From Obrimoposthia wandeli (lineage: Eukaryota), in contig CDROCS010002633.1 in the NCBI GenBank assembly GCA_977020255.1, forward strand, positions 558,001 through 622,000: a DNA stretch of 64,000 nt, given 5' to 3'. Below the pieces are notes generated by a model. The model saw nothing but the letters and a program-made list of their open reading frames with translations, was not told the origin of the DNA and made no database searches. This document shows, piece by piece, positions 19,094 to 49,483 of the stretch; the stretch's first letter is position 1, and each line of letters begins with the position of its first letter. The translations under genes were made by a program, and so were the position numbers.

Positions 19094-19396
19094 TTATAAC
19101 AAAAGCAATATATTTGAAACGATTAATATAACATTATAATAATAATCCAAATCTTTAAGTCCAACTATTATAATTTTTCCCCTTGAGAATACGTTAACAC
19201 ATAATGGATTATATTTATTTACTCTGAGTACAGGAAATAATTTTGATTCGAATATACAACCTGATCCAAATTTCATTGATAAATAATGTAAATTGATTTT
19301 CTTTACAATATCCATAGTTACTGTTACTGATTGAATTATTTCTATTTGTATACCATATTGTAAATTCTCGTTTGTAATTGGTTTATTGGTTGACAA
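19094..19396 (-). pseudogene. TBP-like protein, C-terminal repeat (E0)
   Basis: QSVTVTMDIVKKINLHYLSMKFGSGCIFESKLFPVLRVNKYNPLCVNVFSRGKIIIVGLK resembles the TBP repeat (YEPELFPGL...LIFxSGKIVxTGAK). Homologous to 35299-35475. Confidence 0.7.
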
Positions 19397-21645: not shown

Positions 21646-21699
21646 AGTAGGTAGAAGGATGGAGACTAAACCACTTGACCCCCCCTTGTGCGCACACAA

Positions 21700-22740: not shown

Positions 22741-22830
22741 GCTTACACATCTAAAGAATTATGATAAAATTTCTTTAAATAACTTAAATTATATATTAAA
22801 ATCAAAATAAAATATCATTAATAAATATAT

Positions 22831-23283: not shown

Positions 23284-23335
23284 TTGAAAAAAATAAAATG
23301 AAATACTATAATGATATATTTGTTTATACTTAAAA

Positions 23336-25303: not shown

Positions 25304-25331
25304 TTTTATATTTTAAATATATTTATATTGT

Positions 25332-27371: not shown

Positions 27372-27498
27372 TGCAGCATGCAGAATTAAATTTACAAATA
27401 TGTTAGACAACTTTGTATTGTTTATCCCCATTATTATAAAAGTTCAATATATTTTAATCTGTTTATATGCTTGTATAAAACGAAAGTGATGCATAGTT

Positions 27499-27912
27499 TT
27501 AACTTCTTGAACTTATAAGGCCACCTATTAAAGATGCTATAATAGGAAGTATGGCCATTATGAATCCACCATTTTGATTGTAAATAATGTTTCTTTTATT
27601 AATTTTACCGCGTGAATTTGCTAAATTTATTAATGAATTTTTATATTTTAATATATGAGGATCAAGTTTAATTTTACCATAAATTATTTTATTTAAAATT
27701 TTTATTAAATTATCAACTACATAAATTGGAAATGATTTCAACATTTTCATTTTATTCGTTTTTGATACGTCAATTAATGTTTTGAAATAAGGTAAACTTT
27801 TTGAAAATTCAATATTATTATTACGATCATATAATACAGTGTTTATTAATTTTTTAACTTCATCTTTATCTGTCCTTTTACTATGTTTAAGAATACTCTT
27901 TTTAAAATTCAT
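27499..27912 (-). CDS. PW-like small virion protein, E1
   Basis: Basic 137-aa ORF ending QNGGFIMAILPIIASLIGGLIS, homologous to 36580-36843. Confidence 0.65.
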   Translation of the reverse strand: MNFKKSILKHSKRTDKDEVKKLINTVLYDRNNNIEFSKSLPYFKTLIDVSKTNKMKMLKSFPIYVVDNLIKILNKIIYGKIKLDPHILKYKNSLINLANSRGKINKRNIIYNQNGGFIMAILPIIASLIGGLISSRS

Positions 27913-27932
27913 TTTATTTTAAAACTTTATTA

Positions 27933-28563
27933 TTATTTATTTTGTTTATAGACTGTAATACCATTACGGTTAAATATATCAGTAACAATTCTTAAATCAT
28001 CAGGATATGATTGAGTAAAATTTAAAAATAAATAACCATGAGGTAAAGATGAAGCATCATGAAACGCATCAATTAAATAACTCTTGTTATGAGGAAATGC
28101 TTGACGAGCAATAAAATCTATCACTGTTTGATCTCTAGGATTTTTGAATAAAATCAGATAATGTACATTAAGATTACGAGTACGATGATTTCCTCCTTGA
28201 TGAAATAAATTTTGGGTTATAAAAATTACAGTAACTTCTCTATGTCTTGCAATTTTTGTAAATAAATCATTAAAATCAGATTCTTTGTTATCCTCTTTAT
28301 ATAAGTCATCAATAACAATTACATCACCTTTTACGAGTCTTGTCATCCAATTTTCATCAAAACCGTTAATAATCTTAATGTTTTTTATTTTATTAAATTC
28401 TTGGTTTGTTAAACCAGCTTCTCCGTCACCACCTTGATGCCAATATATTTTATTAAATTTATTTTTAAACATTTTTGAATTTAATTTATTTACAAACAAT
28501 TAAAGTTTTTCCTGAACCACTTGGTCCTACTACTTGAATAGTCCAATTGTTAGTTAATAACAT
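27933..28563 (-). pseudogene. A32/FtsK-like packaging ATPase, E1
   Basis: Walker A GPSGSGKT (frameshifted from the body), Walker B VIVIDDL, and RHREVTVIFITQNLF..LNVHYLILFKNPRD. Confidence 0.9.
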
Positions 28564-28649
28564 TATATAAATATTAATATAAAATAAATATATCAGAATA
28601 AGTACATGTTTATAATAATAATAACAACATTTTATTAAATATTTATTTA

Positions 28650-29036
28650 TTAAACATCAAAATATTCGGTCGCAGTATGAATCCTCCAGATGAGAGTTGT
28701 TTCATTCTTTTTATTTATTTTATATACGAGAATTTTTATTTCGAGCACCCAACTTCTTCCATCTTCTTGAATATCCGAAATCTTTGTTCCGGAACAATCA
28801 TAAAATTTGCACTTATCTCCGCGCATAAATATACCCTCATTCTCAAGTTCAACGTCAATCTTCAAATATTTGATGACATCATTGAATTGTTGAATGTCTT
28901 TGTTGTCAAAATCAGAGACTCGGTAATTGTACGAAGATTTCGATAATGTCACTGGCATAGTCATTGGATGAATCCATGCAGATATCAAGAAGAACATATC
29001 ATACTCGTAATACTTTTGAACGGCTTTATAAGACAT
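28650..29036 (-). CDS. Conserved accessory protein, possible OB-fold family (E1 copy)
   Basis: Intact 128-aa ORF that aligns by eye with 33868-34305, 34455-34904 and 19591-19920. Confidence 0.55.
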   Translation of the reverse strand: MSYKAVQKYYEYDMFFLISAWIHPMTMPVTLSKSSYNYRVSDFDNKDIQQFNDVIKYLKIDVELENEGIFMRGDKCKFYDCSGTKISDIQEDGRSWVLEIKILVYKINKKNETTLIWRIHTATEYFDV

Positions 29037-29109
29037 TTAAAATTGAATGATTTAATTAGAAATTATTTCGTATTTATATAATTTTTTTTAATGTATCTCA
29101 TGATAATGT

Positions 29110-29991
29110 ATCTCATGTATTAGTACCAGATGAGAGTTATCATCAAAAGCATATGCCTGTCGCATCTGGTATGTTATTTATGAGTACAGATGAAATTGAA
29201 ACCAAGTATCAACATAATGTTGGTGATGACTGCATAGTTAAATTTCTTCAGTCAATAGAGAACTTGGCTAAAGAAAAGGTTTTGCCATGGTATTTAGATG
29301 CTCTTAAAAACGTAATGATTCCCTTAACAAATGCAGAGATTCGTACATTTAGCAATTCCGATGAATGTTATTTATGTCACGAATCATCTGAAAAATATGT
29401 TAAAGATCATGATCACTTTACTGGCAAGTATCTAGGTCCTGCATGTAATGAATGTAATTTATCAAGAAAACTTCGTCCAACTTTACCTATTGTGTTTCAT
29501 AATCTCAGAGGTTATGATTTACATCATATTTTAAAACATGTATTGAATAAATTTACTGACTGGGATATAAATATTATACCACAATCAACGGAAAAGTTTC
29601 AAGCCATGATTGTAAGATTAGGTAAAATAACTCTGAGATTTATAGATTCTTTGCAATTTTTGCAATCATCTTTGAAAAATTTAGCTAGTAAATTATCAAC
29701 TATTCCATTAACAAGAGCAGTTTTCCATCTAAACTCATTGATTGCAAAGGAATATTCCCATATGATTTTGCTACATCATTAAATGTCCTCCAGAATAAGT
29801 TAAGTTTACCAGTAAAATGGAATGATAAAATCACAGACACTGAATATCAAAAAGCACAAGATGTTTTGAAAATAACCAATTATAGAAATATGTTGGATTA
29901 TATGTTAGTTTACTTAAAGACTGACGTATATTTATTAGCTGACGTGTTTCAAACATTCAGAAGAAAAGCTCTCAGTGAAGATGGTTTAGAA
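29110..29991 (+). pseudogene. Protein-primed DNA polymerase B (EndoVII-like Zn module plus exonuclease part), E1, cut by hAT
   Basis: CYLC..KDHDHFTGKYLGPACNECNL, IVFHNLRGYD, RFIDSLQFL, KGIFPYD and DVYLLADVFQTFR. Ends at the hAT TIR. Confidence 0.9.
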
Positions 29992-32029
29992 CAGGGGTGG
30001 GCAAACTTTTCAGTTCAAGGGCCACATTCTAAAATTTCAAAAATTTAAAGGACCGCATAGTATATTTAGTTAAAATAAAATAAAAAGGTTTTTAAAGAAA
30101 AAAATATAATTTTGTTTTATTAATATTTTAAAGTAGAAACTTCACATGAAGCACATTTATTTGAAAAACAAAGTAACTCAATAAGTAACAGAACAATGTC
30201 AATGAGAATGATGCATCTGACTGCAGTCTTTTACCAGTTTGTTAAAATCAGGTGTCAAGTTGGTTGTGCCAACACTGACTGAAGATTTGAATCGGTGAGA
30301 AGAGATCTGTTTTTTGACTTGTTAACTTTCATTATAGAGAAAGTCTGCTCACAAATGTAAGTTAGTAAAAGGTGAGCTGAGCAAATCGAACTGTCCTTCA
30401 ATTGCCTTGAAATCCGCAAATTGTCTGATAAATTCCTCTTTTAAAGCCATCATCTGGGAACAGTACTTGTCTGATAATGCTTGTGTAACAGCTCGTGTTT
30501 TCAACAGAGGAAAATGAACAAAGTTTTACTCATTCAGCTGCTTGGCTAAAAGTTAAAGTTTCAATTGAAAGACTTTCACTCCCAGGTATAATTCATGAGC
30601 AAATAAACCTTTGCCTTGTAGTTTTGTGTTTAATTCACTCAGCTTTTGCATTATGTCCACAGCAAATGCAAAATCACAAACCCATTCGTCACTCTCCATT
30701 TCCTTTGAAAAGTCACAAGAGATTTCTTTCATAGTAAAAAACATGACAATCTCTGCTTTTAGGTCCCACACCCTCTTTAGTACCTTTCCCATGCTAACCA
30801 CCGGACATTTGTGTGGTACAGCACATCAGTAAAATCTGCCTCGTTGTCTTCCAAGAAACTTCGGAATTGCCTGTGTTTCAGTCCACGCGCTCTTATTGAA
30901 TTCACTGCACGCACCACTGGATCCATATCATGTTTTAGTTTTAAAGAAGACTTACAGAGGTTTTCTTGATGTATAATACAATGAAAAGACAACGCACTGT
31001 GCAGTGGAAAATCTTCTTTGATTTTATAATTCATCAACTTTACAAGGCCAGAATGTTTACCTGTGAGTGAAGGAGCACCATCAGTTGTAATACTTGCTAG
31101 TTTATACAGGCTTAATCCAGACCTGATTAGACTGGTGTACATATCTTTTCCAGTAACTGTGTCTTTGAGTGACTCCATAGATGACAATTCCTCTGTAATC
31201 TCAAAGTTTTTGCCAATTCCTCTGATGTAAATGAGTAACTGAGCAGTATCCTAAATATCAGTACTCTCATCTAAAGCTATAGAAAACCACTGGAAACTAT
31301 CACTAGCTGTTAACAGCTGTTCTTGAATATTCACTGCAATTGCATCTATGCGACGAACAATTGTTCTTCGAGACAGAGATATAGCTTCTATTTTTGACTT
31401 AACTTCAGGACACACTGACAGCATCAACCATGCAATCTTTAATAAATTCTGCTTCTGCAAATGACTTGTTTTGCTTTGCAATGTTATTGGCCAACATAAA
31501 ACTTGCCTTTGTCGCATTACTTTGTGAATATAATGTTTTCTTAAACAATGTTTGCTGTTGCTTCAAACTTTTTTCCAGATCAGTAGCTTTCTTTTGCAGT
31601 TCTTGCTTTGATAAATTTTGTCCAAAGCTAGCGTGCTTCGTTTGAAAGTGCCGTTTCAAATTGTATTCCTTAAACACAGCAACTGTTTCATGACAAATCA
31701 AACATACAGCTTTAACTCCAATGTCAGTAAAGAAATACATTTCACTCCACTCTTTGTTAAAAACACGGCATTCGTCTACAATTTTTCGCTTCTTAGATAG
31801 ATTCGAATAACTCATTTTGGGTAAAGTTTATAAATGTCTATTTCAATTTAAATTATTTTAACATCAATTTAAATTTCAATAAAAGTTAAAAGAAAACAGT
31901 TTATAACATTAAAAATTTTTCAAAAATAAAAAATCTCAAGATCATCATTTATTCAATTTCTTCACAATTTCTTTTTGTCCCAAAATAACATGCGTATATA
32001 ACTTGGTGGGCCGCATAAAAACCTTTGGG
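29992..32029 (-). mobile_element. hAT transposon (GTF2IRD2/SPIN/Charlie-Buster type), one end lost
   Basis: TIR CAGGGGTGGGCAAACTTTT at 29992, preceded by gtttagaa (NTYTAGAN-type target). The subterminal gggccgcataaaa near 32010 is truncated. Confidence 0.85.
30130..31815 (-). pseudogene. hAT transposase (GTF2IRD2-like), frameshifted
   Basis: KRKIVDECRVFNKEW..YFF..AVCLIC..KEYNLKRHFQTKH, FSIALDESTDI, SITTDGAPS, FHCIIHQE and YHTNVRWL. Confidence 0.9.
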
Positions 32030-32710: not shown

Positions 32711-33366
32711 TAATAATAGAATTTACCAATAAGCCACAATTTTGAAAAATGTTGTATTCGCAAATTTGGTCTAACATATATATATATGACATACAAAAAA
32801 CATTTATGAATACCTTGAAGATTATTAGATTTATCATTCAATAAATTTATTGATATGTGATAACTAATTTTAAATTTAATGGAAATCATTTGCATTTGTT
32901 TATATAAAATTAACAAAATTAAAAATACAATTTTGGGAGATATTAATATTAATCTTTGTAATTTCAATTTTTACAATTCTTCCTCATCTTGCACATATAA
33001 GCTTTCTCAACATTTTTAGACATAAGCCAGATTTATATAATGTATTTATTCCAATTTCAATTGGGATTTTGTTCACTTAAATGACATAGTTGAGTTGAAT
33101 GCTTTAATAGCGAATTTGTCTCTTTTAATTTCGCCAAAACCATATTTATGGTCGGTATTTTATGTTCAAGCATAAAATATTGTAAAATTATGCCCTTTCT
33201 ATTAAATTTAAAAGCATTTTGTTCAAGTATAAAAACTAAATTATTGATATATTAAATTTCAAACAAGATATAATAATTACAAAACAATATTATAAAGAAG
33301 CCTCTGTATATATAAAGTTTTAGTTAATATTTAAAACCTTACAAACATGCAATTATCATATGAGTG

Positions 33367-33620
33367 AGTAGGTGGATGTGTCCGGTCTAATCCACACCCC
33401 CTCCCCTCTGTCCTTTAAAATCGTGTATGTGTGTGGAGTGAAATTTCGTGTAGGTGTGTGGAGTGAAATTTTGTGTATGTGTGTAGGAAAAAATTAAAAG
33501 GAGTAACGCATAGGGGGGGTATCCCTGTCCTTTAAAACCGTGCATGTGTGTGGAGTGAAATTTCATGTATGTGTGTCTCCATTCCACCCAAAGGGGGGAA
33601 GGGAGGGGTACATACCCCAC
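33367..33620 (+). repeat. E2 terminal repeat region
   Basis: agtaggtggatgtgtccggtctaatccacac followed by tandem gtgtgtggagtgaaattt units. A near-identical copy lies at 60916. Confidence 0.85.
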
Positions 33621-33867
33621 ATTTTTTAAAATTTTACTGCGAATCTCAAAAGTGGTTAGAGAAGACCACGGGAATCCATATTGACCCCGGCGGCTTATCG
33701 CAGACGAGATTTCAAATAATATATTACTACTATTTTTTAGATTAATAAATTACTACATGTTAAATATCTATGTCAGTTTTAAAATTTATAGGATAAAAAA
33801 TCGGTCAGATCTATATAATTTAGAGGAGAAAAAACAAAATACGAGTTAAAATTATTTTTCAAAATAT

Positions 33868-34305
33868 TTAGTAAACATAAAACAACATATTGGCTTCACT
33901 CAAAGTCCAGAGAGGCTGCATTTTCCCGTCATCAGCAAAATATTCATTGAGACGTATTGAGATATTCCATAGTTCTTCATCTAGAATTGGTGCAATCAAA
34001 TATCCTAGATCATCTTTAAAATCCAGACTGGGATCAGTTTCAAGCTCGAAACAATTTCCTTCATATACATAATCAGGAATGTAAAATCCCAAAATATTTT
34101 TCAATTGATCAATATCATATGTTGTTAAAATTTCGATGAGATATTTATTCTTCACTTTTGATATTTTCACAGGATTCATAACTCGTATAATTTGATGCCT
34201 CTTTAATATATTACATAGTTTTCCTTTTGAAATTCTTTCTGGATAATAAAAATTTGCTACACATCTCTTATCCATTCTAAAATAAGGAAACTGATTAAAA
34301 AACAA
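33868..34305 (-). CDS. Conserved accessory protein, possible OB-fold family (E2 paralogue a)
   Basis: DIDQLKNIL..PDYVYEGNCFEL..FKDDLG..WNISIRLNEY..QPLWTLSEA aligns with the neighbouring ORF. Confidence 0.55.
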   Translation of the reverse strand: MFFNQFPYFRMDKRCVANFYYPERISKGKLCNILKRHQIIRVMNPVKISKVKNKYLIEILTTYDIDQLKNILGFYIPDYVYEGNCFELETDPSLDFKDDLGYLIAPILDEELWNISIRLNEYFADDGKMQPLWTLSEANMLFYVY

Positions 34306-34423
34306 TGTTTATAAAAAAATACATATAAGATACATATACGTTACAAATATTTAAAAATAAAACTGATTATTAAATGAAAGTAACATAGTAAAACCGATTA
34401 CAATTTATTACACGTAAATATTT

Positions 34424-34904
34424 AAAACATAGACATATGAGCACGTTCAATTTTCTACATAGGCAACTTTGTTCCCATTTCATTTTTCTTGTAACCATAA
34501 AGTCGAATTGTTACAGTCCATTGCTTCTTTTTCGGAAACGCATCAATATCAACATATCTTCCATAGTCATCTAGAAATGCTTCATCGGGTCCTCGGATAT
34601 AAAATTCGTTCTTATTGAAAGTAAAATTCGGAACTGCCTTTTCAACTTTCTGTTTAAGATATTGAAAATCTGGTTTTTGAATATTTGATAGATAGTAGCT
34701 GAACTTTCTTCTTTCAATTGTCACAGGATTTACTAAAACAATCAGTTGAGCCTTCTTCAAGAATCTGACTTTGTATTTGAAATATTGTTTCACTTCTTCA
34801 TACATATCCTTATCCGATTCTTCAAACATTTCCGAATCTTCGTCACCGCTTAATACCCGTTGGCTATCCTCCATTGTTGATAATTGTCTTTGATATGAAT
34901 GCAT
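34424..34904 (-). pseudogene. Conserved accessory protein, possible OB-fold family (E2 paralogue b)
   Basis: DFQYLKQKV..PNFTFNKNEFYIRG..FLDDYG..WTVTIRLYGYKK..LPM*KIERAH. The TAG falls where homologues have Trp. Confidence 0.6.
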
Positions 34905-34919
34905 TTACTGTGATTTGTC

Positions 34920-35129
34920 CTCCAATGGCGTATTCTTTTATACTAATTTTTAACAAAGACATGAATCTCATTGGTTAATATAACAAAAGCATTGATTGGA
35001 CTAAATTTGATTGGAAGAAATATATCATCCAATTATAATATGTTTGCAAGATAATTACAAGAAACGTGCAATAAAAAAGCAGGTTCAGACATATATAAAG
35101 AAGATTTTACAGAATACAATTTTAGTCTA
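34920..35129. promoter_or_regulatory. Divergent TATA/CCAAT promoter region of E2
   Basis: TATATAAA at 35092-35099, about 30 bp before ATG 35130. Several CCAAT/ATTGG boxes on both strands lie between the head-to-head genes. Confidence 0.5.
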
Positions 35130-35475
35130 ATGAAACTCTTAAATATAAATTATAAAGGTAGAACAGAAGATTATGTTTCGTACTTACCATTCAATGAATG
35201 GAAGCCGAGACAATATGTGGAAAAGTTTGACAATTTTACAGTTGTTGTTTTTCCTACAGGTTAGTTTTTTATTTTATTTTCATATTGATTTCTTTTAGGA
35301 AATTGTCGTGTTATGGGATGCAAAATACCAATACCTGGGTTCAATTTACCATTTGGAATTCGAATCACTGCAATACAATCAATCACGATTTCGGCTAATC
35401 TTGTGAAACAGATAAATCTTTTTAAAACTGCTGAGAAAATGAAAGAAGAATGCATGTTTGAACCAGAAATTTTGA
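35130..35475 (+). pseudogene. TBP-like protein (E2), spliced via 39-nt intron 35260-35298, 3' truncated
   Basis: MKLLNINYKG...TVVVFPTG|NCRVMGCK...IQSITISANLVKQINL..CMFEPE shows both TBP half-repeat signatures. The GTTAGT..TTTTAG intron removes an in-frame TAG. Confidence 0.7.
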
Positions 35476-35756
35476 AGTGGATCGTCTTGCCGACGAAATA
35501 TTTTTTGGAAAAATTAGGGGTAAAGAAATTTTATCAGAATTAAAAAATAATGATATAACAAGAGATAACATTGAAATATTGGTTAGATCACACGTTATTC
35601 GAGAATTTAGAAATCGTACACAAATAAATAAAATTATAGCCCAATATTCATTAATTAATTTTTGTATTTCATCTACAATAGCTCTACCATTGTACATTTC
35701 AATAATGAAACTTCTATGATAATATAAACAATATTAAAAATGAAAGAGTATATGCA

Positions 35757-36400
35757 ATGGAGCTAAATAATAATGTTGTTTTCAAATACTTCGTCCCAGT
35801 GGAAGTGGAAAGACACATTTCGTATGTAAATTGTTGCAAAATGAATCTCTTTTCAAATCTAGTTTCAAAAATATTTATTTGCATCATGGTGGAGGAGGGG
35901 AAAGCGGATTAACCAAAACAGAAGTTTGCAAGTTGAAGGGAATACAATTTATTGAAGGATTTGATGCAAATTGGTGTGAAAGATTGAAAAAAGAAGATGT
36001 AATAATAATTGATGATTTGTATCAGGAAGCTAACAGGCAATCGGACTTTAATAATTTATTTACAAAGATTGCAAGACATCGTGAAGTAACAGTTATATTT
36101 ATCACTCAAAATCTTTTTCATCAAGGTCACCATAGAACAAGAAATCTTAATGTACATTACTTAGTTTTATTTAAAAATTCTAGAGATCAAACAGTTGTAG
36201 ATTTTGTGGCCAGACAGGCATTTACCCAAAATAAGAACTTTCTAGTTGATTCATTCCATGATGCTGCTAAACAAGCACATGAGTATATATTTATTGACTT
36301 TACACAAGCTTGACCAGATGATTTACGTGTTTTAACCGACATATTTAATTCTAAGGGAGTAACTGTTTATAAACAAATAGAGAACAATCATAAAAGATAA
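35757..36400 (+). pseudogene. A32/FtsK-like packaging ATPase, E2
   Basis: PSGSGKT, VIIIDDL and RHREVTVIFITQNLF. One N-terminal frameshift and a TGA at 36311-36313. Confidence 0.9.
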
Positions 36401-36402
36401 AT

Positions 36403-36843
36403 GTACAATGCTTTTTAAGAAGTTGATAGTAAAACGTAAAGCAAAGCCTAAGAAATCAAAAAAAACAATCATTAAGAAAAAAACAATATTTAAATTGAAC
36501 CTTTTTTATTAAAATAAAGAAAATACAAAGAAGCCTACCCTATTTTAAAGCTTTAGTCAAAGCCTCTTCTCATAAGAGAATGATTATTCTTAACGCATTT
36601 CCATCTTTTGTTGTAGATGATTTATTGGAAGTTTTGTATAATATAGTTTTGGGTCGAGTAAAAGTTGGAAATCAAAAAAATATATTAAAGAAATATAGAA
36701 AAACTCTTCTAGATATTGCTAATGTAAAAAGTAAAATAAGGAAACGAAATTTTATTCTTAAACAGAATGGTGGTTTCATAGGGGCTGTTATTCCAGTTGT
36801 TGCTTCAATTATCAGTAGTATTATAGCTGCGACACGATCATAA
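36403..36843 (+). pseudogene. PW-like small virion protein, E2
   Basis: LPYFKALVK..FPSFVVDDL...KQNGGFIGAVIPVVASII, homologous to 27499-27912. Confidence 0.65.
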
Positions 36844-36940
36844 ACAATTATTTCTAAAATCAGCTAAAAATATGGGTGCTAAAAAAATATATGCCCTTCT
36901 TTACCTAAATTTAAATTTTCTTTCTATTCAAATTGTTGTA

Positions 36941-37967
36941 ATGGAGAAGATATGGTTCAACCCAAAAGATCCAATTGGCTACGCAGGAGTTTCAAAATTA
37001 GCAAAAAGAACAAAACAAAATTACAAGAAAACGCAGAAATGGCTGAGCGACCAGCTAGCATACAGTCTGAACAAGTCGATGAGAAGAAGGTTTCCAACTA
37101 GAGCTTACAAAACCAGCGGCCCTAATAATTTATGGCAAATGGATTTGATGGAGATGATCCCATATTCTTCCACTAATAAGGGATATCGATATATTTTAAC
37201 ATGTATTGATGTATTTAGCAGGTTAGCTCGTGCAATTCCAGTTAAAGCAGTCTTCAATAGCTATGCTTGAAGCCATTAAAGAAATATTAAAAGAGGACAT
37301 TCCACAAAATGTGCAAACTGATTTAGGAAAAGAATTTTATAATAAGCAAGTTCAATCATTATTTAAACAAAATAATATAAATCACTACTCTGTGTTTTCA
37401 CAGTACAAAGCAGCAGTAGTAGAAAGATTTAATCGTACTTTAAGAGATCGAATAAAAAAGTATTTCACAAAAGAAGGAAATAAAAAATGGATCCAAGTTT
37501 TACCTAAAATAATACATGCATATAATCACTCGGAACATAGAGGTCTCAAGGGAATGAGACCTGTTGATGTTACTAATAAAAATTCTATGGATATTTGGAT
37601 GGATAGGAATAAAAAAGAAAATATTAAAAAAGCTAAATATAAGAAAAACGAATATGTTCGAATTTTGAAAATTAGCTCTACTCCATTTATTAAAAACTTT
37701 GATCAGAATTGGAGCGATGAAATATTTTGTATAAGTAAAATTGATCAAAAGAGTAATCCAATAATGTATACTATTAAAGATGCTGACAATAATATCATTC
37801 ACGGTAAATTTTACGAGCAAGAACTACAAGTAATATCAAATAAACCTAGCGTTTTCCGTATTCAAAAAATATTAAAATCTAAAGGTGCCGGTAAACATAA
37901 ACAATACTATGTTAAATGGCATGGTTATTCAGATCCAACTTGGATATCAGCATCTAATATAATATGA
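36941..37967 (+). pseudogene. rve integrase with chromodomain, E2 (one frameshift near 37250)
   Basis: WQMDL..LTCIDVFSR, VQTDLGKEF, VVERFNRTL and YYVKWHGYSDPTWI. Confidence 0.92.
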
Positions 37968-38910
37968 AGTCTATGTATATGGTTTTACCTAGTAACGGAT
38001 GTCCGAAGACTCAACCAGATAATTACGCTAGTAGCTTTATTATCGATTGGGAAAATCCTATAAATCTCCAAGGAGAATGGGAAGCGGCTTTAACAGAATT
38101 TTCCTTTTATTATTCTCCAATTACTATCAGAAAAAACTCACATACGTTTACAAAAGAAGTTGATAATGAAAAATCAATTGAAGTTGTGATTGGGTTTGGT
38201 AAAGGAAAATTCTATTACAATTGTATAGATAAAGAAGTGAAAGTTATATATGATAAAAACAAAGTCAGATTTAAAAATCGACTAAAACATTTTTTAAAAC
38301 CTATTCAAATTATATTTGGATCTGACAGAGAAGCTCTTCAATTCGGTTTTGACAGTGGACATGTATGAAGAGATCTGATATAGCCTCATCTAAATCGTTT
38401 AAAAATGTTCCTGATAGAGTAACAAAAGTGTTTTTAGTTGAAACGAGACCAAAGTATGTAGTGGAACTGAAAATGTTTTCAAAAGATTATAAATTAGATA
38501 GTGAAGTGAATTTCTGTAAATTAATACAGAAGGAATGTAGTGAATATTTCGATAAATGTGTAACATTAAAAAAATGGTAAAATAACGTTTACAGTAAAGA
38601 GAAATATAATACGAGTTTTATTTGATGATAAACTCGCTAAAAACCTTGGTTTAAACAGAAATACCTTTGAAACCCATACAATAAAAACCATAAAAGCTAA
38701 AAATAAGGCCAAACTTTTAAATGCTGTTAATCATTTATATATTTATACTAATTTAATAGAACCAACGCTTGTAGGAAAACAGCGAGTTCCACTTTTGAGA
38801 ACAATATGATATAAACAATATTGAAGTAAATATTAGAGATGATTCCGGACAACTAATAGATTTCACGTACGGGGCCAAGACAAGTTTAACAATACATTTA
38901 AGAAAACAAA
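37964..38910 (+). pseudogene. Minor capsid/penton protein, E2
   Basis: MYMVLPSNGCP..IDWENPINLQGEWEAALTEF at the N-terminus; YIYTNLIEPTLVG..VPLLR and IEVNIRDDSG..TSLTIHLR at the C-terminus. Frameshifts. Confidence 0.85.
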
Positions 38911-39288
38911 ATGGCGAATCCAGCAATAATTGAAGCTTATAGTCAAAGCCAACAAGGTGGAGAATTACCATATTTTGTTGGTAAACAATATAGATCTGGC
39001 TGGCTTAGAACATTAGGTAGATTTGCCTTTCCTCTTTTAAAGAGACTCGGGCGATTTATATCAAAATTAGGAAAGGATTACCTTTCATCTAAGGACAATA
39101 AACTAATACCAACTTTTAAGAAGCATGCACTTGATGAACTTGATAATGTTTTACCTGAAGTTGCTAATTTGATTAGAAAACGTAAATCAAATAACAGCCA
39201 AGGAGGTAGTGGATTTAAACGTAAAAAGAAGCAAAAAATTAATATAAACAAACGTAAGAAAGTTGAAGGAACAATATTTGCAAAGTGA
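38911..39288 (+). CDS. Basic core/membrane-active virion protein (PZ-like), E2
   Basis: Intact 125-aa ORF with SQQGGELPYFVGKQY, an amphipathic WLRTLGRFAFPLLKRLG helix and a Lys/Arg-rich tail. Confidence 0.75.
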   Translation: MANPAIIEAYSQSQQGGELPYFVGKQYRSGWLRTLGRFAFPLLKRLGRFISKLGKDYLSSKDNKLIPTFKKHALDELDNVLPEVANLIRKRKSNNSQGGSGFKRKKKQKININKRKKVEGTIFAK

Positions 39289-40509
39289 GTTGCGCCAAAC
39301 CGAATTGTGTATTTTTGATTAACCACTTCCACAAGTAGTTGTAGATAATGCTTCCTCTGAAGAAATATTTCTAGTTAATTCAGTTTCAGGAACCACTTTA
39401 ACCGATTTAGAATTTAATATTAATGGTTCCAATAGCGAGTATTTAGATTTGAATGATACTTTGCTTTATGTTCAAATAAAAGTATTACATCAAGATGGTA
39501 ATAATTTAGAGGGAAATGACAATGTAACACCTGTAAATTATCTCTTTAATTCTTTATTTAGTGATGCCATTGTTACTCTTAATAATGTCAAAATTGAAGG
39601 TGGAAATTCTTCCTATGCTCATAAAGCTTTGATTGAAAGTCTATTGAATTATAGTATTGATACTCAAAATACTAATTTGGCAACCATTGGTTATGATAAA
39701 ACAGTTGCAACTTACAAAGAATGGATTACAGATTCTAAAGCTTACGAAATGTGTGGGTCTTTGAGATTGAATTTCTTTGAACAACCGAAATATTTAATTC
39801 CCGGTGTTAATGTACATCTTCGTTTGAAACGTAATAAATGGAATTTTTCTTTGATAAGCACATACGTTCTAAAACCTAGACTTGATATTTTGGATGCAAA
39901 ATTGTATGTCCGAAGAGTTAAAACCGAGCAATCAGTTTTAATGGCACATAATATAGGAATGGGAAAAAACAATGCTTATCTATTAAAGAAACTAAACTTA
40001 TATCCTATTCTTTAGGTACGGGTACACAAGCTTTTAATAAGGATCAAATTTTTGGTGATGAAAGATTACCGAAATTCATTTTAATATCTTTTCAAAAAAC
40101 TGCAAAGTATCTAGGAAATTATACGACAGATGCAACTCAATTTGACAATCGTAATGTAGGTTCAGTGACACTTTCAAGAAATACTGATTATCGCGAAACA
40201 TATAAAACAAATTTCGAAGGTAACGCTTATGCTTTGGCTTATATGCAATCTATTATTCGGAATTTGGGCCAACTAGATAAAAATATAAACAATGGTATTT
40301 CTTTCACTGAGTTTAAAAGCAGCTGCCCCTTCTTCACATTTGTTTTGGCACCATACTTTGATATAAACCAATGTCAACTACCAAAGGATGGAAATTTACG
40401 ACTAGACATTAAGTTCAATGCAGCTTTAACACATCCTACTACGGTGCTTATTTCCGGAGTGTTTGATTCCGAAATGCAAATCAATAAAAACAGAACTATC
40501 ATATTATAG
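39285..40509 (+). pseudogene. Major capsid protein, E2
   Basis: ELCIFD*PLPQ...LEFNI..YLDLNDTLLYV..FFEQPKYLIPGV..FTFVLAP..GNLRLDIKF. Start GTG; stops and frameshifts. Confidence 0.9.
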
Positions 40510-40539
40510 AATGAAGTAAGACATTTTTTAAATTTATAG

Positions 40540-43500
40540 TCTTGAAGACTTACACCCTCAAATTCAGTTATGGGTGGGATTTCAGTTGTATTTTCTAAAT
40601 CTGCGAAAGTTTTCGCAAATTTATACGGAAAAATCCCCTTATCGTTAACCGAAGCTGGGAACACTGACTGTGAAATTGGCCATGCATTTAAAGATGCCGT
40701 TAAATTTTTTAAAGACCCACTCAAAAACTGCAGAGAATCTATGAATCTTAAACTGCAGAATTCAGTATATGCAGTTAAAGATAAATATTTCTATGAAGTT
40801 TGAGGTATACATGAAATTTCCCAAGAGCTTAATGTACCCAACGCATATTTAAGTATATGGTGCAAATCATATCCTTTGAGGTTATGAAACACGATGGGAA
40901 TTCGTGGTTTTTTAGGGAGACGACGGCCAAGGTTACAGAGGTTGCACGCCGCTCCCAAGTATCGCCCCGTAACATGATCGTGATCTCTGACTAACTTAGA
41001 CTGGGTTCCACACAAATAACATAATCTACAAGAATTAAAATTAACCCAGTCTATGCCTGTCATGATCATTGCTTGATGAGCATTAAGATCATACCACGGT
41101 TTGACAATTGTTGTTCCTAATTCTTCTAATTTTAACATAAAATTTAAAATACAATTTGGACCGGAAAATTTATGATACTGTGTAATATTGGGGCCTAAGA
41201 ATAGTAATCCTGCCGAAGCCGGTTGGTGAATACTCTCATACTGTTCATGCAATGCTAGAATTGACTCAAAATCTGCATACACCCTGAATTCCACGGGTAT
41301 GCATTTTGCCCAATCCCTGAATTTTAAATCCTTAAGCATGCTGTATAGCGTATTGTCATCAGGATTTAGAGAATATAATGCCAGATGTTTGCAGTAAGAG
41401 AGCTCGGATCGGAATTCATGTAAACATCTATGACACCACTTACACCTTATCCTAACCGGTATATGTTCGAGCAAAATTAAGTTGACCTGAGTCACCTCAT
41501 TTTTGCTTCTATAAATTACATCTACAAAATGATTTTTAAAAATTTCTTCATCTGCTACATTAANNNNNNNNNNNNNNNNNNNNNNNNNNNNNNNNNNNNN
41601 NNNNNNNNNNNNNNNNNNNNNNNNNNNNNNNNNNNNNNNNNNNNNNNNNNNNNNNNNNNNNNNNNNNNNNNNNNNNNNNNNNNNNNNNNNNNNNNNNNNN
41701 NNNNNNNNNNNNNNNNNNNNNNNNNNNNNNNNNNNNNNNNNNNNNNNNNNNNNNNNNNNNNNNNNNNNNNNNNNNNNNNNNNNNNNNNNNNNNNNNNNNN
41801 NNNNNNNNNNNNNNNNNNNNNNNNNNNNNNNNNNNNNNNNNNNNNNNNNNNNNNNNNNNNNNNNNNNNNNNNNNNNNNNNNNNNNNNNNNNNNNNNNNNN
41901 NNNNNNNNNNNNNNNNNNNNNNNNNNNNNNNNNNNNNNNNNNNNNNNNNNNNNNNNNNNNNNNNNNNNNNNNNNNNNNNNNNNNNNNNNNNNNNNNNNNN
42001 NNNNNNNNNNNNNNNNNNGAACGCAATCAATTTTTCAAAAGCCCCATAGGGGCCTCTTCTACTTTACGTAGGTCCGGGTCTCAATCTTAGTATAGTTGCT
42101 GCTGGTCCTCGGTAGCAGTAACAGTAGCTGCTTGGGGTCTCGGTTTCGTCATTAGAACTTTGAGTAGGTCCGCGTACTTTTTCAGTACTCTTACGTCATC
42201 GCCGGGTACAGTTTTGGGCCCTCGGCAGTCTCGATTGTAGCGGGGCCACCTTTTCGGCCAAATTTGTCGATAATACCAGACAGTATCTTTGCGCACTCCT
42301 CATTAACATCGTAGTTTCGCAGTAACCCAAAAATATCGTCTTGGGCCCCCTGCAGGAAGTTATAATTACTCCTGTTGTTTACCTGCGCTTCATTATTTCT
42401 CTTCCTGCCCATGTCGAAATTTTCAGATCTTATTATTTTTATTCAGAATTTTTAAATCATTATTAATTTGTTTTTTTTTGGATCATTGACAAAAGGCTCA
42501 TTTTCGGCACACGAATCCGCTGTTGTTTGTTGTTGGTTGTTGTTGTTTTTTGTTGTGTTTTTGTTGTTGTGTTGTGTTGTGTTTTTTTTTTAAGGGCCCT
42601 TTCTACTTTACGTAGGTCCAGGTCTCAATCTTCTCCAGTTCGTCGGCTGACAACTTATCCAGGGTCCCAGTTGTATGACTCGAGAATTTAGCCCACTAGG
42701 CTGCCGTATGTTCGATGGTTTTCAGGGTTAGTCGGATCTTGATATCCTTGATCTCCTTTGCTTTAAAACCAGCATTTGCAAAGATCCGGTTATTGATTTC
42801 AGGTCAGTAGCCGAGGGTCCCGATCCTTAGCGCGTAGAGTTGCACGAGTTTTTCTGGGTGGCAGGTCTTTAGCATTTCAACGAGCTCCGCGTATTTGGAC
42901 ACAGTTTCGGTGAGCCTCAGATCAAATGACATGTCAGAGTCAAACGGGATCTTGATCTCTATCAGCATCACCTTATAGTCAGTCTCGATCGTTATGTCTG
43001 GTCGTGGTCTGCGGCTGTTTCCGTTATCGTCTACACATAAGTGGGTCATCTCTTGAGTTACCTTACCTGGATATTTTAGTTCCATGACCCTTGCAGTTTC
43101 CCGGCAGATCATGTCGTGTCTTTGAATTCGTAGTTTTGCTATGAGCTTACAACCAACGATTGCATGGCTCATCGACTCTCGCTCCTGGCATCCCTTCCTG
43201 CATGGGGCGATCATATCAGTCCTGGGGCCTCGTACCTTCATGCGCCCGCACCTTGCGCGGTGGATGAAGAACCACCCTCAGTACGTCAGACGGCCCTTCA
43301 TGATGGCCCGGTTAATGTCTGTGTCTGATGTGGCGTTCTTATATATTGGACTCGCTAGCTTGTCTTCGAGAACCTTGTGACTTTGGCTGAGTTGCATAAT
43401 TTTATGCATCGCCTTACTTGTGGCCTTGTAGGTCTTGAACTGGATGAGAAAACTGCCTCCATGGGCGCTGGTTATGAAAAGATTGAGTGCTTGGTCCTTC

Positions 43501-46500
43501 TCAATCAGTTCTAGTTTGATATTTAGCTCATTCTGGAATTTCTTAGCCGCGTGGAACAGCCGCGTCCAAAGTCCCGTATCTTTCATGTTAGTGGCTAGGG
43601 TCCCTTCATTAACCCCTGAACTGCTTTGGAGAAGGTCATTGGCAGATTAGGAAACTTCAATTGTTCGGTGAGCTCACGCCTGAATAGGTTCTTCAGGTCC
43701 CTGTCGCGTGCATTTGCCATATTTATCGTCTGGATGATGGACTGGATGTTATATTCGTCCTCAATCCTTGTCAGCCCAAGACCTCCACGGTCCTTGAGCC
43801 CATAGAGAACTCCGATAGGGCTGTTGGCTAAGTCTAGTCCCGCGATTGGTTTTATGACTTTCCTTAGGAGTTCTTCGAAGCCCCTTTCGTCTGTTCGGTT
43901 GCAGGATAAGCGGGAGTGTACCAGGTTTCCCTGTCTGAATACAAATATCAGCTTTGAGTGAATGAAGGTATTGTATGCGTCAGTATTTTGATACGGTCTT
44001 AGATCGCTTTAGGCCACTGTCGTGGTCAGTCGAAGCACTTCAGCCAACAGCTCCTCCCAATGTTGCTTGGCGTTTGCAGTCCTGTCGCTGCCAAGGTATC
44101 GGTATGGCGTGTCCGCAGTTACCTCTGGTATTTTTTCCCCTCTCAAAATGAGATTGTCGACTCGTTTGTCTTTCCTGTATGGTATTCGTAGGACACCACA
44201 CTTGCTGGGCCGGAATGTCAGCTTTAGGGTACTCGCGGTCTTGTCAGCAGTATTGATCAGGGTCTGGAGTCCTTCTTTGGAGCTAGATATGAGTGCGAGG
44301 TCATCGGCGTATGCAAGGGTCCGGATTTCTTCACCTGTTTCAAATCTGTATCCTGAGCCATGGCTTTGGTTTGTGGCCTCTATTACCGGATTGATGCTCA
44401 TATTAAATAAGAGCATCGATAGTGGACACCCTTGTCGCACTCCTCGTTTTATTGGGATCCAGTCGATTTTCCTGTCACCGCAGACAATGTTGGTCATATT
44501 CTGCTTATATACATCTTCAAGCAGTCTGATAGCGGCTGGGGCCACGTTAATTTTTTCCAGCATTCCCCAAATGAAAGAGACTGGCACTGACCTAAAGGCA
44601 TCGGCCAGATCTAGGAAGGCGATGTAGGCGCAGCTTTGGTTCCTCTTTCGCAATACTTCCGAGGTGATCAGGCTAATCACCGTGTTGTGCTCGAAGCACC
44701 CCTCGTAGGCACCAAGGGATTTTTGTCGTGGATCCAGTATTTTATTCTTCCAGGCCCAATCACTCATCCGTCTTGTGATGATTGACACAAATATCTTGTA
44801 AACGCATGACATGACTGCGATAGGTCGCCAAGCTGTGATGTCATCGTAGCGCTGTTTCCTAGGTTTTGGGATGAACTTGGTCTTGAAGGTTCGCCAAGAG
44901 TCGGGAGTCCGTTGTTCGTCAATGCATGCATTGTATAGGCTTGCCAGTTTGTTACCATTATTGAAGCTGTGTAACATGTCCCTATATGTTACTTGGTCCG
45001 GTCCTGGGGCACTACTAGGTGCTGCTCTCAGCGCTCGAGTCACCTCCTCTGGAGTGATATGGCTGATCTCGAAGGTCTCTGGTGCTTTTCGGAAAAGGTT
45101 ATCGGGAACTGCATCCCAGTCAATTGGGGTTGGTTCGGCGCTCTTGCTTGTGAAGAAACCCCGTATGTTGTCCTCGTTTGGGCATGCTGTTGTCTTGTCG
45201 ATAGGGATCTCCGTGATTTTGTCAAATGCTGCTTTTTTTGAGAAGGCGTATAGCTTGTTAATTACGATATTCTCCTTGTTCTTGCCGTGGTTCCTTGGCT
45301 TGAAACAAGGGGCTTGATCGCAATCCAGTTTCCTCAGTAGGCAGGCTGTGGTCACAGACTTTTCTATAGCGTTCACTTCCTTTCTTTCCTGCTGGGGGTT
45401 ATTGCTCAGCACAATGGCCAAGGGTTCAGATATGTCACAATTCCCATTACCCGGTGATGCTGAGCAACTCAGTTTCCCGACTTCGGGAAAGCTGAGGCTG
45501 ATATATTGTTCTCCCATTCTGTCTTACTTTTAGGTGGTGGTAAAAACTGGTCTAAACCTGTAATTGGTATGTCCTTCTTGTGGCCTGATCTCAGCTGTCT
45601 TTCATTTTGGCCTCCCCTACCTGGAATCCTGTTCGGTTCCCCCGAGGTCGATGCAGTAGGATCTGCATTTAGATCCTGAAAAATGGCATCAATTATTGCT
45701 CCAGTATCTTTGGTAGTCTCTTTGAGGATTGTCTCCCCTGGGATTGTCTCCTCAGGGATTTTCATTCTTCTCTCCGTTACGATGGGTACAACGTCATCCT
45801 GGTTACTGATGTGTCGTGCATTGACAGGGTTTGGGTCCGCTATCTGCGGCATCTTACCTTCTAAGAATTTCTTCTCGGTTTCTGCTGCACTGTTTCGTAT
45901 GCCAAACTTTATTTTTTTGTCTGTGGAGAACCATTTTTTGAGCTCGTCCGATTTTTCAATGAAACCACCATTTGGGCCTATGATGTTAGTGGCATTCGCA
46001 GTTCCGTCTTATCGTCTCTGTGCGTGTGCTTTGATGAAAGTGCCACTGATTAGAAAGGGGGAGGCGCCTTTTTTGTTTCCGCTGAGGATTGTCATTCCTC
46101 TCTCCGTTACGATGGGTACAACGTCATCCTGGTTACTGATGTGTCCTGCATTGACAGGGTGTGGGTCCGCTATCTGCGGCATCTTACCTTCAAAGAATTT
46201 CTTCTATGTTTGCTGTAAGAGAGCTCGGATCGGAATCCATGTAAACATATATGACACCACTTACACCTTATCCTAACCGGTATATGTTCGAGCAAAATTA
46301 AGTTGACCTGAGTCCCCTTATTTTTGCTTCTATAAATTACATCTACAAAAGGATTTTTAAAAATTTCTTCATCTGCTACATTAACTGGGATATCAGTATT
46401 GTATTTGAATACATTAATACTGAAGTTATTAAGGTGTTCAAATCTTGATATCGCAGTTAATTTAACTGGAAAATCTATTCCATGATACTGCAATTCATTT

Positions 46501-47436
46501 AAAAAATAGGTATATTTACTGACACGCTCTCTATGCTCAGTAATTACATTCCTTTTGAGGATGGCAACACGCTATACAGAAAGCAAAGGTTATCACTGTT
46601 TTGTATGTTAACAATGGAACGTAAAAGTTGAAGAGATTTAGGTGAAGGAATGTATGAACTCCCCGAAAGATATATCATGTCAGTGAACTTTGTTAGAACA
46701 AAGCTAACATCGTGAATTCTAACTAGAGTCCATCCACTACTTACTTCGCTATAATTAGCAATTTTTTCATCTAGGTTTCTTCCAATTTCAGTTACAACAT
46801 TATCATAGAAAACAGTTGCTTTATGTGAAATTACCCAAGTTTTAGTCTCCTCATTGACATTTTTAAACTGCACTGTTGCGCAAAATTGAACCTTAGCCTG
46901 TCCTAATTTAGTCACTTCTGATTTTAAAAGATTTTCAATATTTGAATCTACACATAAAATTTCATTTCCTAATGACACCTTAACTATAACATATTTATTA
47001 TTTAGGTGATACTCTACAGTAGCGCCGTTTTCTCTACGTTTTTTTGGTGGGACCTTATTAAGAAATTGGCCTCGTCTCTTTCTTCCTACAGTCTCTGACA
47101 AACCTCCCCCTAATTGAACGGGAAGACAACTATTCATATTAACAGTTGATACAAACGCAGCTGAGGTTGAAGGTGCTGCTATTGGTGATGCTGCCGATAT
47201 TGAGGCAATCGCAGCTGATATAGACGATGCTGCTGTAGTAGATGCTGAAGTAGTAAATGCTGCCGCAGTTGTAGATGCTGCATTTGGAGTAGTAGCCGAC
47301 ATTGCTGACGAAGAAGCGGCTGTTGTAGAGGATGATGCTGCTGAAATAAATTTATTAAAAAATTAATATATATTTTTTAATTATTACCTCTAAGGCGTGC
47401 TAACATCGATGTAGGCACTCGCGATGGGGGAGGCAT
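40540..47436 (-). pseudogene. Protein-primed DNA polymerase B, E2, with 47-nt intron, split by a retroelement, C-terminal polymerase domain deleted
   Basis: N-terminal SGWTL..GSSYIP..IVNIQNSDNLCFLYS and GIDFPV..FEHLNNFSINVF; then VYADFES, RDHDHVTGRYLGAACNLCN, VFHNLKGYD and KGIFPY. Confidence 0.9.
42019..46205 (-). mobile_element. R2/NeSL/Utopia-type non-LTR retrotransposon (RT plus CCHC plus REL), degraded
   Basis: SAPGPD, WRPIA, GCFEHN, LDLADAF, GVRQGCPLS, LAYADDL, YRYLG; CRKGCQERESMSH..C, RHD, RPD..IEIKIPF and KY. ORF ends at 42603. Confidence 0.92.
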
Positions 47437-47462
47437 AGCTGTCGTAGCGGATCACGGCTGTA

Positions 47463-48233
47463 TCAATGAATTTCCTGAAAAAAAATTAACATAAAATATA
47501 TATAATTACAATAATATATATTTAATTAAAAATAATATATATAATTAAAATTTTAAAAAATAATCTGAAAAATAATAATAAAAAATATCTAATGAAGGCA
47601 ATCCAACTGTAGCTGGAATGAAGTCCTCTTCATTGACGGAATCCATCCATTCCTCGATGGTCTCCAACCAGAAGTTATCGCTCCACTGAGGCTGCTCCAT
47701 CTCGAAATCTGACTGGGTGATATTTTCCATCCTGTCATTGTTCGAGAATTGGGTTGCTGGCGCCAACTCCTCAAAATCTTCTTGGGAGATGTCGTTCATC
47801 CACTCATTGTTAGTCATTTGAGTGGATGGGGCAGCAGCAGAATCAGGAGCCGGGAGAGAAGGAGCAATGGCAGGACCGTAAAATGGTTGATCGACTGCAA
47901 CAGAAATTGGAGCAGGAGCTGGAGCGGCCTGCGAATTGCGCACCAATTGCACGATATCCCTCTTCTTGTTGTTGGCCGTGAAACAGGATAGGTGAACTCG
48001 ATGTTCACCGAAGTAGTCTCGAAACTCCTTCTCCTCCATTGTTCTGCAGAAGGGGCAGACAAACAATTGAAGCCCGCGAGACTTTGTCCGATAGTAGGCG
48101 GACATTATCTCCATGCAGGTCTCTCCTCCATGCGGAGCCGAAGCACCACAATACGCATGGAATAGGTTACACGTAATCTGAAATAATAAATATTAATAAA
48201 GAAATAATAAGTATAGATTCTTACCATAGTCAT
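47463..48233 (-). CDS. Spliced RING-like/acidic-repeat accessory protein, E2
   Basis: MTM|ITCNLFHAYCG..TC..VCPFCR via a 47-nt GTAAGA..TTTCAG intron (48178-48224). Three WMxxI(S/T/N)xxDF-like acidic repeats. The 3' exon structure is uncertain. Confidence 0.55.
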
Positions 48234-48474
48234 TATTTCAAATAATCGGGGATTTTAATGAAGAAAGTGTTTGCTTATATACTAAAATTTATGCACATAT
48301 GCTCTTTTCCTATTGGATTAAAAAATTGAATTTATTCCTCCACTGAGAAGGATTGTTTATCTGTTATTGGTTGATAATTTTATTTTTATTCCTCCAATTA
48401 AAAGACTTATTTGTAATTGGATGAAAAATCAAATTTTTAAATAATGAATTTCTCCAATTAGAAGAATTGTTTAT

Positions 48475-49483
48475 CTACATGTCAAATGATAATAAGATAG
48501 ACTCCCCCAATTCGGCTTCCTATGTGAATAATTAAAATAATTAACTAATTTATAATAACTTACTTCCAATTTAGCCGGAGTCGGTAGGTATCGCTGCTCA
48601 CTCCTGGGATCATCCTGGCTACATTGACTCGTCAAGTACTGCGGTTCAATCAGCCTCTCCACCGTGGTCACTGACGGTGCCAAATCCAGTTGAAGTTTCT
48701 AAAAATGAAAATAACAAAACATTTTAAATAAATTAATAGACTAACCTCATTCGTCGCCTTTATTCTCCTAACAGGACGTATCGGAGATTGCGGCCTTTTG
48801 AACGAATCAGGCCCCGTATTGTCCGCTATCGGAGTTTGAGTTGTAGAGGGAGTGAGACCATCCCAATCGTCGGTGAACAGGCGCCACTCGTCCTCGTCCA
48901 ATTCTGCCACCATCGAATCGTTGGCTCTTGGGGCTCCGATACTTGGCTGTATCCATTCGTCGATGAATGGAGTCAAGTCCTCCTCACCATTCGACGGAAC
49001 GTCATCGGTGAATAGCTCCTCATCTGAGTCTGGTGCGAGTACTATCTCCGGCTGAGACAGAGAGATCAATTTCCAGGGGCGTTTGATTGCCGCCTCAAAA
49101 TTATCGAAGAGATTGGATCTCCTTGCTGCTACTGCTGAAGTTGCCGGACGAGTGGTTTCTGTGTTTTGCCTGGGAGTACAGTCTTCCCAATTCTCAAACG
49201 AATCCTGACTAGTCAGGTCGATATATTGGGATCTCTATACCCCACCTCTCATGCTCATTGGTTCTTCTCTTGGAGTTGAGCTGGCCAATGGCGGTTCTTC
49301 TAGCAACAGATCGGCTCTTGCTGCTGCTTCTCCTTTGTCTCCTTCGCTCACCACCGACGAGTCTTGACTAAGTAAGTCAATGTACTGCGCCGGTGGTAGC
49401 GTTCGCTGCTGTACTGGAGAGGGATCCCCATATAGTTGAACCTCCATATCTTCATCCAAATCGACGTTGTTGAAAATTGGCAT
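48475..49483 (-). pseudogene. Spliced acidic, disordered accessory protein with SIM-like motifs, E2
   Basis: One premature TAG (49235-49237). Two phase-0 introns (48699-48745 and 48520-48563) keep the frame. Repeats of YIDL(L/T)SQDS and LFTDD. Confidence 0.6.

Follow-up and report, generated by a model that had tools for sequence, protein, structure and literature searches.

A short TBP-like gene in Polintons of Obrimoposthia wandeli and a TATAAACA box before their packaging and putative capsid genes

The locus raises the question whether a Polinton carries a TATA-binding protein (TBP) of its own and, if so, on which promoters this protein would act. The window, i.e. the whole stretch of 64,000 nt that was analysed (contig CDROCS010002633.1, positions 558,001 to 622,000, assembly GCA_977020255.1), contains a degraded Polinton copy, E1, with a TBP-like gene, and a second TBP-like fragment in an element designated E0. 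The features are collected in Table 1.

Table 1. Features of E1 and E0 in the window (positions are those of the window).
Feature	Position	Strand	Evidence or remark
E1, degraded Polinton copy	33366..48503	.	left end 33366-33367
TATAAAC box before minus-strand ORF 33868-34308	34307..34313	-	
Canonical TATA box of TBP-like gene	35092..35100	+	sequence; 30-38 nt upstream of ATG
TBP-like exon 1, from ATG 35130 (N-lobe strands; helix H1 absent)	35130..35259	+	alignment; model of relative P0001
39-nt phase-1 GT-AG intron with in-frame TAG and TGA	35260..35298	+	comparative; splicing inferred
TBP-like exon 2, ended after FEPEI by a deletion of ~210 nt	35299..35473	+	sister-copy comparison
TATAAACA box, 34 nt before packaging-ATPase ATG 35757	35723..35730	+	
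Packaging ATPase (Pox_A32-like), broken near start	35757..36313	+	PF04665, E 8e-6, above cut-off
TATAAACA box before small ORF / pX-like core gene block	36368..36375	+	
Retroviral-type integrase with chromodomain, frameshifted	36827..37967	+	PF00665, PF00385, at or below cut-off
TATAAACA box inside putative minor capsid gene, ~120 nt before next core-protein ATG	38810..38817	+	in relatives, ~100 nt before stop of putative minor capsid gene
TATAAACA box within core-protein ORF, before putative major capsid gene	39243..39250	+	
Putative major capsid gene, broken	39290..40509	+	named by size and position
E1 pPolB pieces	40534-41563 and ~46170-48500		split by N run and reverse-transcriptase element
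E0 TBP-like exon 2, 5' part deleted	19094..19387 (ORF 19094-19399)	-	PF00352 match
TATAAAC box overlapping stop of E0 TBP-like exon 2	19092-19098		sequence

Hallmark genes of Polintons were found in the elements of the window (pPolB, PF03175; retroviral-type integrase, PF00665; packaging ATPase, PF04665) and in their relatives (adenoviral-type protease, PF00770; a PHROG polymerase). E1 itself has lost the protease region. The putative capsid ORF of about 408 aa is conserved and lies where a double jelly-roll major capsid gene would be expected, with no Pfam, PHROG or PDB sequence match. The names major and minor capsid, core and exonuclease-like are those which we take these genes to deserve, as is the name pX-like, for which a weak Adeno_PX match was also obtained. 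The E1 polymerase is interrupted by a reverse-transcriptase element (window ~42020-46200), on either side of which lies a 179-nt repeat (41385-41563 and 46206-46384); an ORF upstream of this reverse transcriptase gave a weak match to PF15518 (L-protein N-terminal endonuclease, E 4e-4). A small ORF starting with MG, a possible N-myristoylation site, follows a TATAAAC box and overlaps the integrase start in the window (near 36860), in two metagenome loci (L060 ~5590, L059 ~3020) and in the element G000:C3275. Outside E1, another left end of the E1 family begins at 60916-61061, and a host exon with a BTB_2 domain, like the N-terminus of voltage-gated potassium channels, lies at 15247-15648.

Relative to its sister copies the E1 gene lacks about 210 nt after 35473 and, because of this deletion, the reading frame ends there. 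Judged by its sequence, the window copy is a dead relic that could not make the protein, a point that the preliminary description of this locus had overlooked. The full-length product in sister copies is about 152 aa, close to the roughly 150 residues of the element family as a whole. Against the Pfam TBP profile PF00352 the window copy alone scored weakly (E 0.013-0.024, under the cut-off), while other element copies reached 48-54 bits and the E0 ORF 34.3 bits (E 2.1e-8), above the cut-off of 22.9. The peptides quoted in the preliminary description and its minus-strand E0 ORF were as described. Its proposal that E0 supplies the missing C-terminus held in so far as E0 does contain a TBP-like exon 2, but E0 comes from another family (identity between its sibling L002 and the E1-family exon 2, 53-54%) and the true C-terminus is that of the E1-family sisters. 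E0 is without exon 1, intron and promoter.

Four Polinton families of this genome carry the TBP-like gene: the E1 family, the E0 siblings, a young family and a fourth family, G000:C3275, which is the one without the intron. A read-through query from E1 gave at least 150 matches in the genome at 88-100% identity (150 of 150 scored candidates), and both exons were open to the usual stop in 20 of the 30 E1-family copies fetched. All 150 scored candidates of the E0 query matched as well; they were E0 itself, 16 siblings, most of them decayed, and 133 members of the young family (57-59%). Polintons are recognised by terminal inverted repeats (TIRs), AG...CT ends and a 6-bp target-site duplication. 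Two TBP-bearing copies of the young family, of about 15.1 kb, have 6-bp duplications and TIRs 96-97% identical; for E1, the left end was located. The fourth family element is about 11.6 kb long, with TIRs and an intronless TBP ORF of 154 aa. A second Polinton of this family occupies 21646-30050 of the window, with its TBP gene deleted and all eight of its TATAAAC sites on the structural-gene strand.

The TBP and TRF genes of the host are separate low-copy loci. Besides two canonical TBP genes that lie head to head, the host has two intronless divergent TBP/TRF genes and an intron-rich paralogue (G000:C238, 870.3-874.0 kb; C60; C1092; C968). Intronless bacterial-type GroEL genes were found on G000:C1360, C3834, C5518 and about 20 other contigs, which suggests that these contigs of the assembly are bacterial.

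The 39-nt GT-AG intron with its in-frame TAG, reported in the preliminary description, was confirmed, and an in-frame TGA was found in addition. In three families of this genome an insertion is present at one single phase-1 site, in the F-x-x-G codon, with differing sequences and lengths of 39 nt (E1 family), 36-39 nt (young family) and 33-39 nt (E0 siblings). Among 30 E1-family copies, GT was kept in 29, AG in 30 and an in-frame stop in 30; among the decayed E0 siblings the intron end was damaged in two of four. The metagenome contig L079 has a 40-nt insertion at the same site, through which the reading frame is broken. Of the 56 metagenome loci fetched, 48 could be scored and 47 of them are contiguous at the site, as is the fourth family. 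A GT-AG insertion was thus found where homologues are contiguous, as for a spliceosomal intron, and comparison indicates that the intron is probably spliced. No intron interrupts host TBP at this site, although introns of 47 and 48 nt occur at other places in it, and the shortest of 19 distinct introns of host chaperonin genes measured 41 and 42 nt. A length of 39 nt is near the host range, and 33-36 nt below anything in this small sample of host introns. In a quick tree of 51 rows, a single origin was rejected neither for the four intron-bearing rows (p 0.9) nor for the four families of this genome (p 0.87), and because of this neither parallel intron gain nor separate invasions are claimed. 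Intron-like GT-AG segments of 41-46 nt occur in other genes of related elements, including two unnamed genes near the TBP gene (upstream in L053, L055, L056, L058 and L068; also L079). One of the unnamed intron-like genes, without a family match, is linked to the TBP gene at many loci.

The fold was examined in a relative, P0001, which is not a protein of this genome. Its AlphaFold2 model (105-row alignment, pLDDT 96, pTM 0.84) has strands only in the N-lobe, with no helix of four or more residues before residue 82, and a complete C-lobe. The model was superimposed on TBP over all 146 residues, including both lobes, with a Z of 14.3 and an rmsd of 2.4 A; the next unrelated fold reached Z 6.7, and Foldseek gave E 2e-10 for TBP. 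The TBP fold claimed in the preliminary description is confirmed by the agreement of the Pfam match, a PDB sequence search and this predicted model.

Residues were numbered as in yeast TBP (Table 1 of PMC12529657) and transferred through a cellular TBP that fits every residue listed in that table. In 105 relatives the acidic residue 186 (E or D) is kept in 105, E188 in 105, F116 in 104, F190 in 104, F207 in 105 and P191 in 97; N69 is kept as well. Three of the four intercalating phenylalanines are therefore retained, and the fourth, F99, is Pro in 104 of the 105. Other changes are nearly invariant (V122 to R in 104, L205 to N in 105, V71 to N in 102), and T124 to M, N159 to S and V161 to T are fixed or nearly so; the DNA face is more polar than that of cellular TBP. 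The basic positions of helix H2 are gaps and the basic patch of the N-lobe is absent; the spacing from N69 to F116 is 37 vs 47 in cellular TBP and from G125 to Q158 19 vs 32. Longer relatives, such as P0208, P0212, P0177 and P0218, keep the N-lobe helices, yet in them position 122 is already R and position 205 N.

According to PMC7221094, the C-lobe glutamates contact TFIIB, the N-lobe patch is the shared site of TFIIA, TAF1, Brf1/2 and Mot1, and most viral TBPs have lost the glutamates and come with a TFIIB of viral origin. The element family appears to be the opposite, with the glutamates kept and no TFIIB match. In the ORFs of the elements scanned no TFIIB was matched, a very diverged one being conceivable; in the genome, PF00382 gave 12 TFIIB-type matches on six contigs, and the eight matches fetched had no element gene nearby.

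The family was compared with known systems. With cellular TBP/TRF (PF00352; PDB 1cdw, 1ytb, 1mp9) it shares the two-lobed saddle, the complete C-lobe, F116/F190/F207, P191, N69 and E186/E188, but the cellular core is about 180 aa against about 150 aa, H1 and H2 are absent in the element protein, and the identity is 23-31%. The beta/gamma-herpesvirus vTBPs (KSHV ORF24, EBV BcRF1, HCMV UL87; PMC12529657) likewise have a polar DNA face, with polar residues at V122 and L205 among others, and use a non-canonical TATTWAA late box before structural genes. Unlike the element TBP, which is a single bare domain, ORF24 is a multidomain protein of 752 aa in a six-protein complex, with four Phe and no TFIIB-contact acids, which binds Pol II directly. 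Structural matches of herpesvirus vTBPs to the element TBP were weak (E 1e-3 to 2e-2), and they are analogues, of which the element TBP is not a member. The giant-virus TBP-like proteins (PMC7221094) resemble it in having no eukaryotic N-lobe signature, and BFVD matches reached E 8e-9 at 8-19% identity; they differ in that most are accompanied by a viral TFIIB and that C.L3.2/C.L3.4 are conserved in about 40%, where the element residues are acidic in 105 of 105. A TBP-like gene in a Polinton-related virus is known as a label in the legend of Fig. 5 of Starrett 2021 (PMC8502044), for a MELD virus with an adintovirus-like PolB; no analysis of its structure, promoter or intron was found in the text of that paper. 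The preliminary description, which placed such genes outside the canonical Maverick set, had overlooked this label. No TBP match was found in the supplementary file of that paper, and in the literature on Polinton TBP or promoters, subscription journals and Repbase aside, no account of the short TBP family or the box was found. The present analysis contributes evidence on the intron, a control family with no TBP, a test of selection and the assignment of lobes to bases of the box.

The promoters themselves were approached through the TATAAACA box, which was first spotted by eye and then tested by counting. In 11 TBP-bearing elements TATAAAC ranked first among the 7-mers lying 25-60 nt upstream of ORF starts (34 of 111, 2.1 expected). 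In nine elements it occurred 82 times vs 28 expected, with no enrichment of TATAAAA, TATAAAT or TATAAAG, and the next base was A in 40 of 42 cases. Two counts in host DNA gave 13 seen for 8.6 expected and 7 for 7.8. Upstream of packaging, pX-like, putative capsid, exonuclease-like and protease genes, the distance of the box from the ATG is mostly 31-38 nt. After upstream regions had been de-duplicated at 65% identity, ATAAAC preceded the ATPase gene at 13 of 14 loci, the pX-like gene at 8 of 8, the putative major capsid gene at 7 of 9 and the exonuclease-like gene at 7 of 9, and less regularly the protease (3/5), putative minor capsid (3/6) and core genes (3/6); since the elements are still related, these counts are not fully independent. 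Of 91 TATAAAC sites, 36 had an ORF start 25-60 nt downstream (background 2.5%), and the other 55 were not at this distance from the first ATG of an ORF of at least 80 aa; E1 has two further boxes inside the capsid ORF. The same interval held 9 of 195 TATAAA[AGT], 0 of 27 GTAAACA and 13 of 345 AATAAA sites. The distance from box to ATG is tight, and that from box to upstream stop ranges from -115 to +279, the box often lying inside an ORF. A reading of the box as poly(A) signal is disfavoured by this variable distance. ATAAACA matches a Forkhead-type site, but the absence of GTAAACA at the promoter position is against a Forkhead reading.

The promoter of the TBP gene itself is different: TATAAAC was found before it at 0 of 37 loci and a canonical TATAWAW at 21 of 37 de-duplicated loci (6.3 expected) and in 29 of 30 E1-family copies. 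The other 16 of the 37 loci have no canonical TATA box. In TBP genes of this kind TTGTTT(T/A)A was often present about 50-65 nt upstream (noted at L051-L056, L062, L064, L066, L078, L079, L083, L086, L091, L093, L094 and L097), and an initiator-like TCAT/TCACT close to the ATG is common. An unrelated Polinton family of the same genome with no TBP within its aligned body contained 25 TATAAAC vs 28.8 expected, and had the box before 1 of 64 ORF starts. This control is one family in one genome, and 3 of 10 fetched control regions had a TBP match outside the aligned body (at 1.3, 6 and 9 kb), two of which were E1-family copies. With a single control family, box and TBP could co-occur by shared ancestry.

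How the protein might read the box follows from two published points. Position 7 of the cellular consensus YWTAWADN does not admit C, and it is at step 7/8 that the second Phe pair is inserted (PMC1935006); P191 fixes the first T of the box (PMC12529657). With the first T fixed by P191, the C-lobe would lie over the 5' half of the box and the N-lobe over its 3' half. In TATAAACA this mapping would set the intact lobe against the canonical half and the rebuilt lobe against the C. We favour, as a fairly probable reading, that the element TBP reads the TATAAACA boxes and recruits host TFIIB and Pol II to the packaging and capsid genes; the position of the box and the residue pattern are observed, and from these we infer binding. 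At an early stage host TBP would drive transcription of the TBP gene from the canonical TATA box of that gene, and in three families the transcript would be spliced. The Phe pair and Pro of the C-lobe would read the 5' TATA half like any TBP, and the rebuilt N-lobe (F99 to P, V71 to N, V122 to R, T124 to M) would accept C at position 7. E186/E188 would dock host TFIIB, which is invoked because none was matched among the element ORFs scanned. Loss of helix H2 would remove the surface for TFIIA, TAF1, Brf1 and Mot1, and thereby allow escape from the regulation of host TBP. The earlier suggestion that the element acts on its own promoters stands in that a box precedes its own genes; it needs amendment in that TATAAACA is non-canonical and not an ordinary TATA box.

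It is about an even chance that this amounts to an early-to-late switch in a transposon-virus of 11-15 kb, by one TBP of 150 residues that has shed its regulatory helices, is re-specified for TATAAACA and engages host TFIIB/Pol II, convergent with the TATT system of herpesviruses. 'Late' is here a label by analogy, the box preceding non-structural genes too, such as the IAP gene. In the young family this gene (BIR + RING) directly follows the TBP gene (L019/L020 1840-2742; G000:C265, C293, C1655); ahead of it, a TATAAAC box overlaps the stop of the TBP gene. Among the variable cargo of relatives (L072 225-719, L056 4008-4316, L077 1918-3327, L079 1710-2168) are an E2 ubiquitin-conjugating enzyme, a dual-specificity phosphatase, an LRR protein and a RING protein.

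Other functions of the protein were weighed against the same observations. It is unlikely that the element TBP acts as a general activator which has escaped regulation and works on ordinary TATA boxes, with TATAAACA read by host TBP or another host factor and the co-occurrence due to descent. Cellular TBP can bind a C-containing variant through Hoogsteen pairs (PMC4402545; title of PDB 1qn3), and because of this tolerance in crystals host TBP might read the box unaided; the Forkhead-type match and the single TBP-less family tested also fit such an activator. This is countered by the 0 of 27 for GTAAACA, by a box fixed in strand and distance, by a C7 outside YWTAWADN and by the near-invariant polar changes of the DNA face, which imply a changed specificity. 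That the protein serves as a decoy, which would dampen host transcription or defence by sequestering host TFIIB/Brf or by sitting on host promoters, is in our opinion improbable. The invariant TFIIB-contact glutamates and the host-modulating cargo nearby (IAP with BIR and RING, E2 enzyme, dual-specificity phosphatase, LRR protein) would suit this role, which leaves the matching box before the element's own genes and the rebuilt DNA face unexplained. The Giardia TBP, without three of the four Phe, binds ssDNA (PMC12209930) and the N-lobe of the element TBP is reduced, but a similar non-transcriptional binder for replication or packaging is very improbable here with three Phe, P191 and both Glu kept and a box at TATA distance before genes.

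The family is distributed well beyond this genome. Of the candidate database proteins 164 of 168 matched, the 120 listed all having PF00352 and mostly 144-164 aa; at E<=1e-30 a profile search yielded 59 representatives, and it also found longer relatives in which more of the N-lobe is kept. Among 56 metagenome loci a Polinton hallmark gene was present in 26; of the 20 loci with at least 3 kb, 15 have one, two of these having supplied the query genes. The scan of prokaryotic genomes gave one 3-kb contig, and no relative was found on viral contigs scanned with TBP, ATPase and MCP queries and an ATPase alignment. The protein-cluster atlas returned TBP clusters for the element TBP and weak 0.90 matches for its neighbour. 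Thirteen independent pairs, taken from 39 intronless ORFs, had a median dN/dS of 0.20. In the quick tree, which covers a subset of the family, the short element proteins are set apart by one branch (SH-aLRT 95) and the cellular-type and host TBPs by another (100). By these comparisons the TBP-like gene is a conserved element gene under purifying selection. A fragment of host TBP/TRF captured once and passively carried, named in the preliminary description as the case that would count against an element gene, is scarcely credible: the presence of an intron would speak for it, but the intron site is unbroken in host TBP, a clade of the four own families with host TBPs was rejected (p-AU 2.3e-5), and the metagenome distribution and dN/dS of 0.2 oppose it as well.

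If the favoured reading is true, the element TBP would favour TATAAACA over TATAAAAA or random AT-rich DNA, with TATAAAAA and TATATAAG as the duplexes to be compared with TATAAACA for the C7 preference. The timing of Polinton capsid genes and the switch from transposon to virus were found undescribed in the literature searched, and one small protein and an 8-bp box make this timing directly testable. The box is also a marker for small unannotated genes in these elements. The family represents a natural dissection of TBP, in which the TFIIB surface is kept, the regulator surface is lost and the lobe facing the changed base is altered. If true, it would be the smallest viral late-transcription system known to us and a natural orthogonal TBP-promoter pair.
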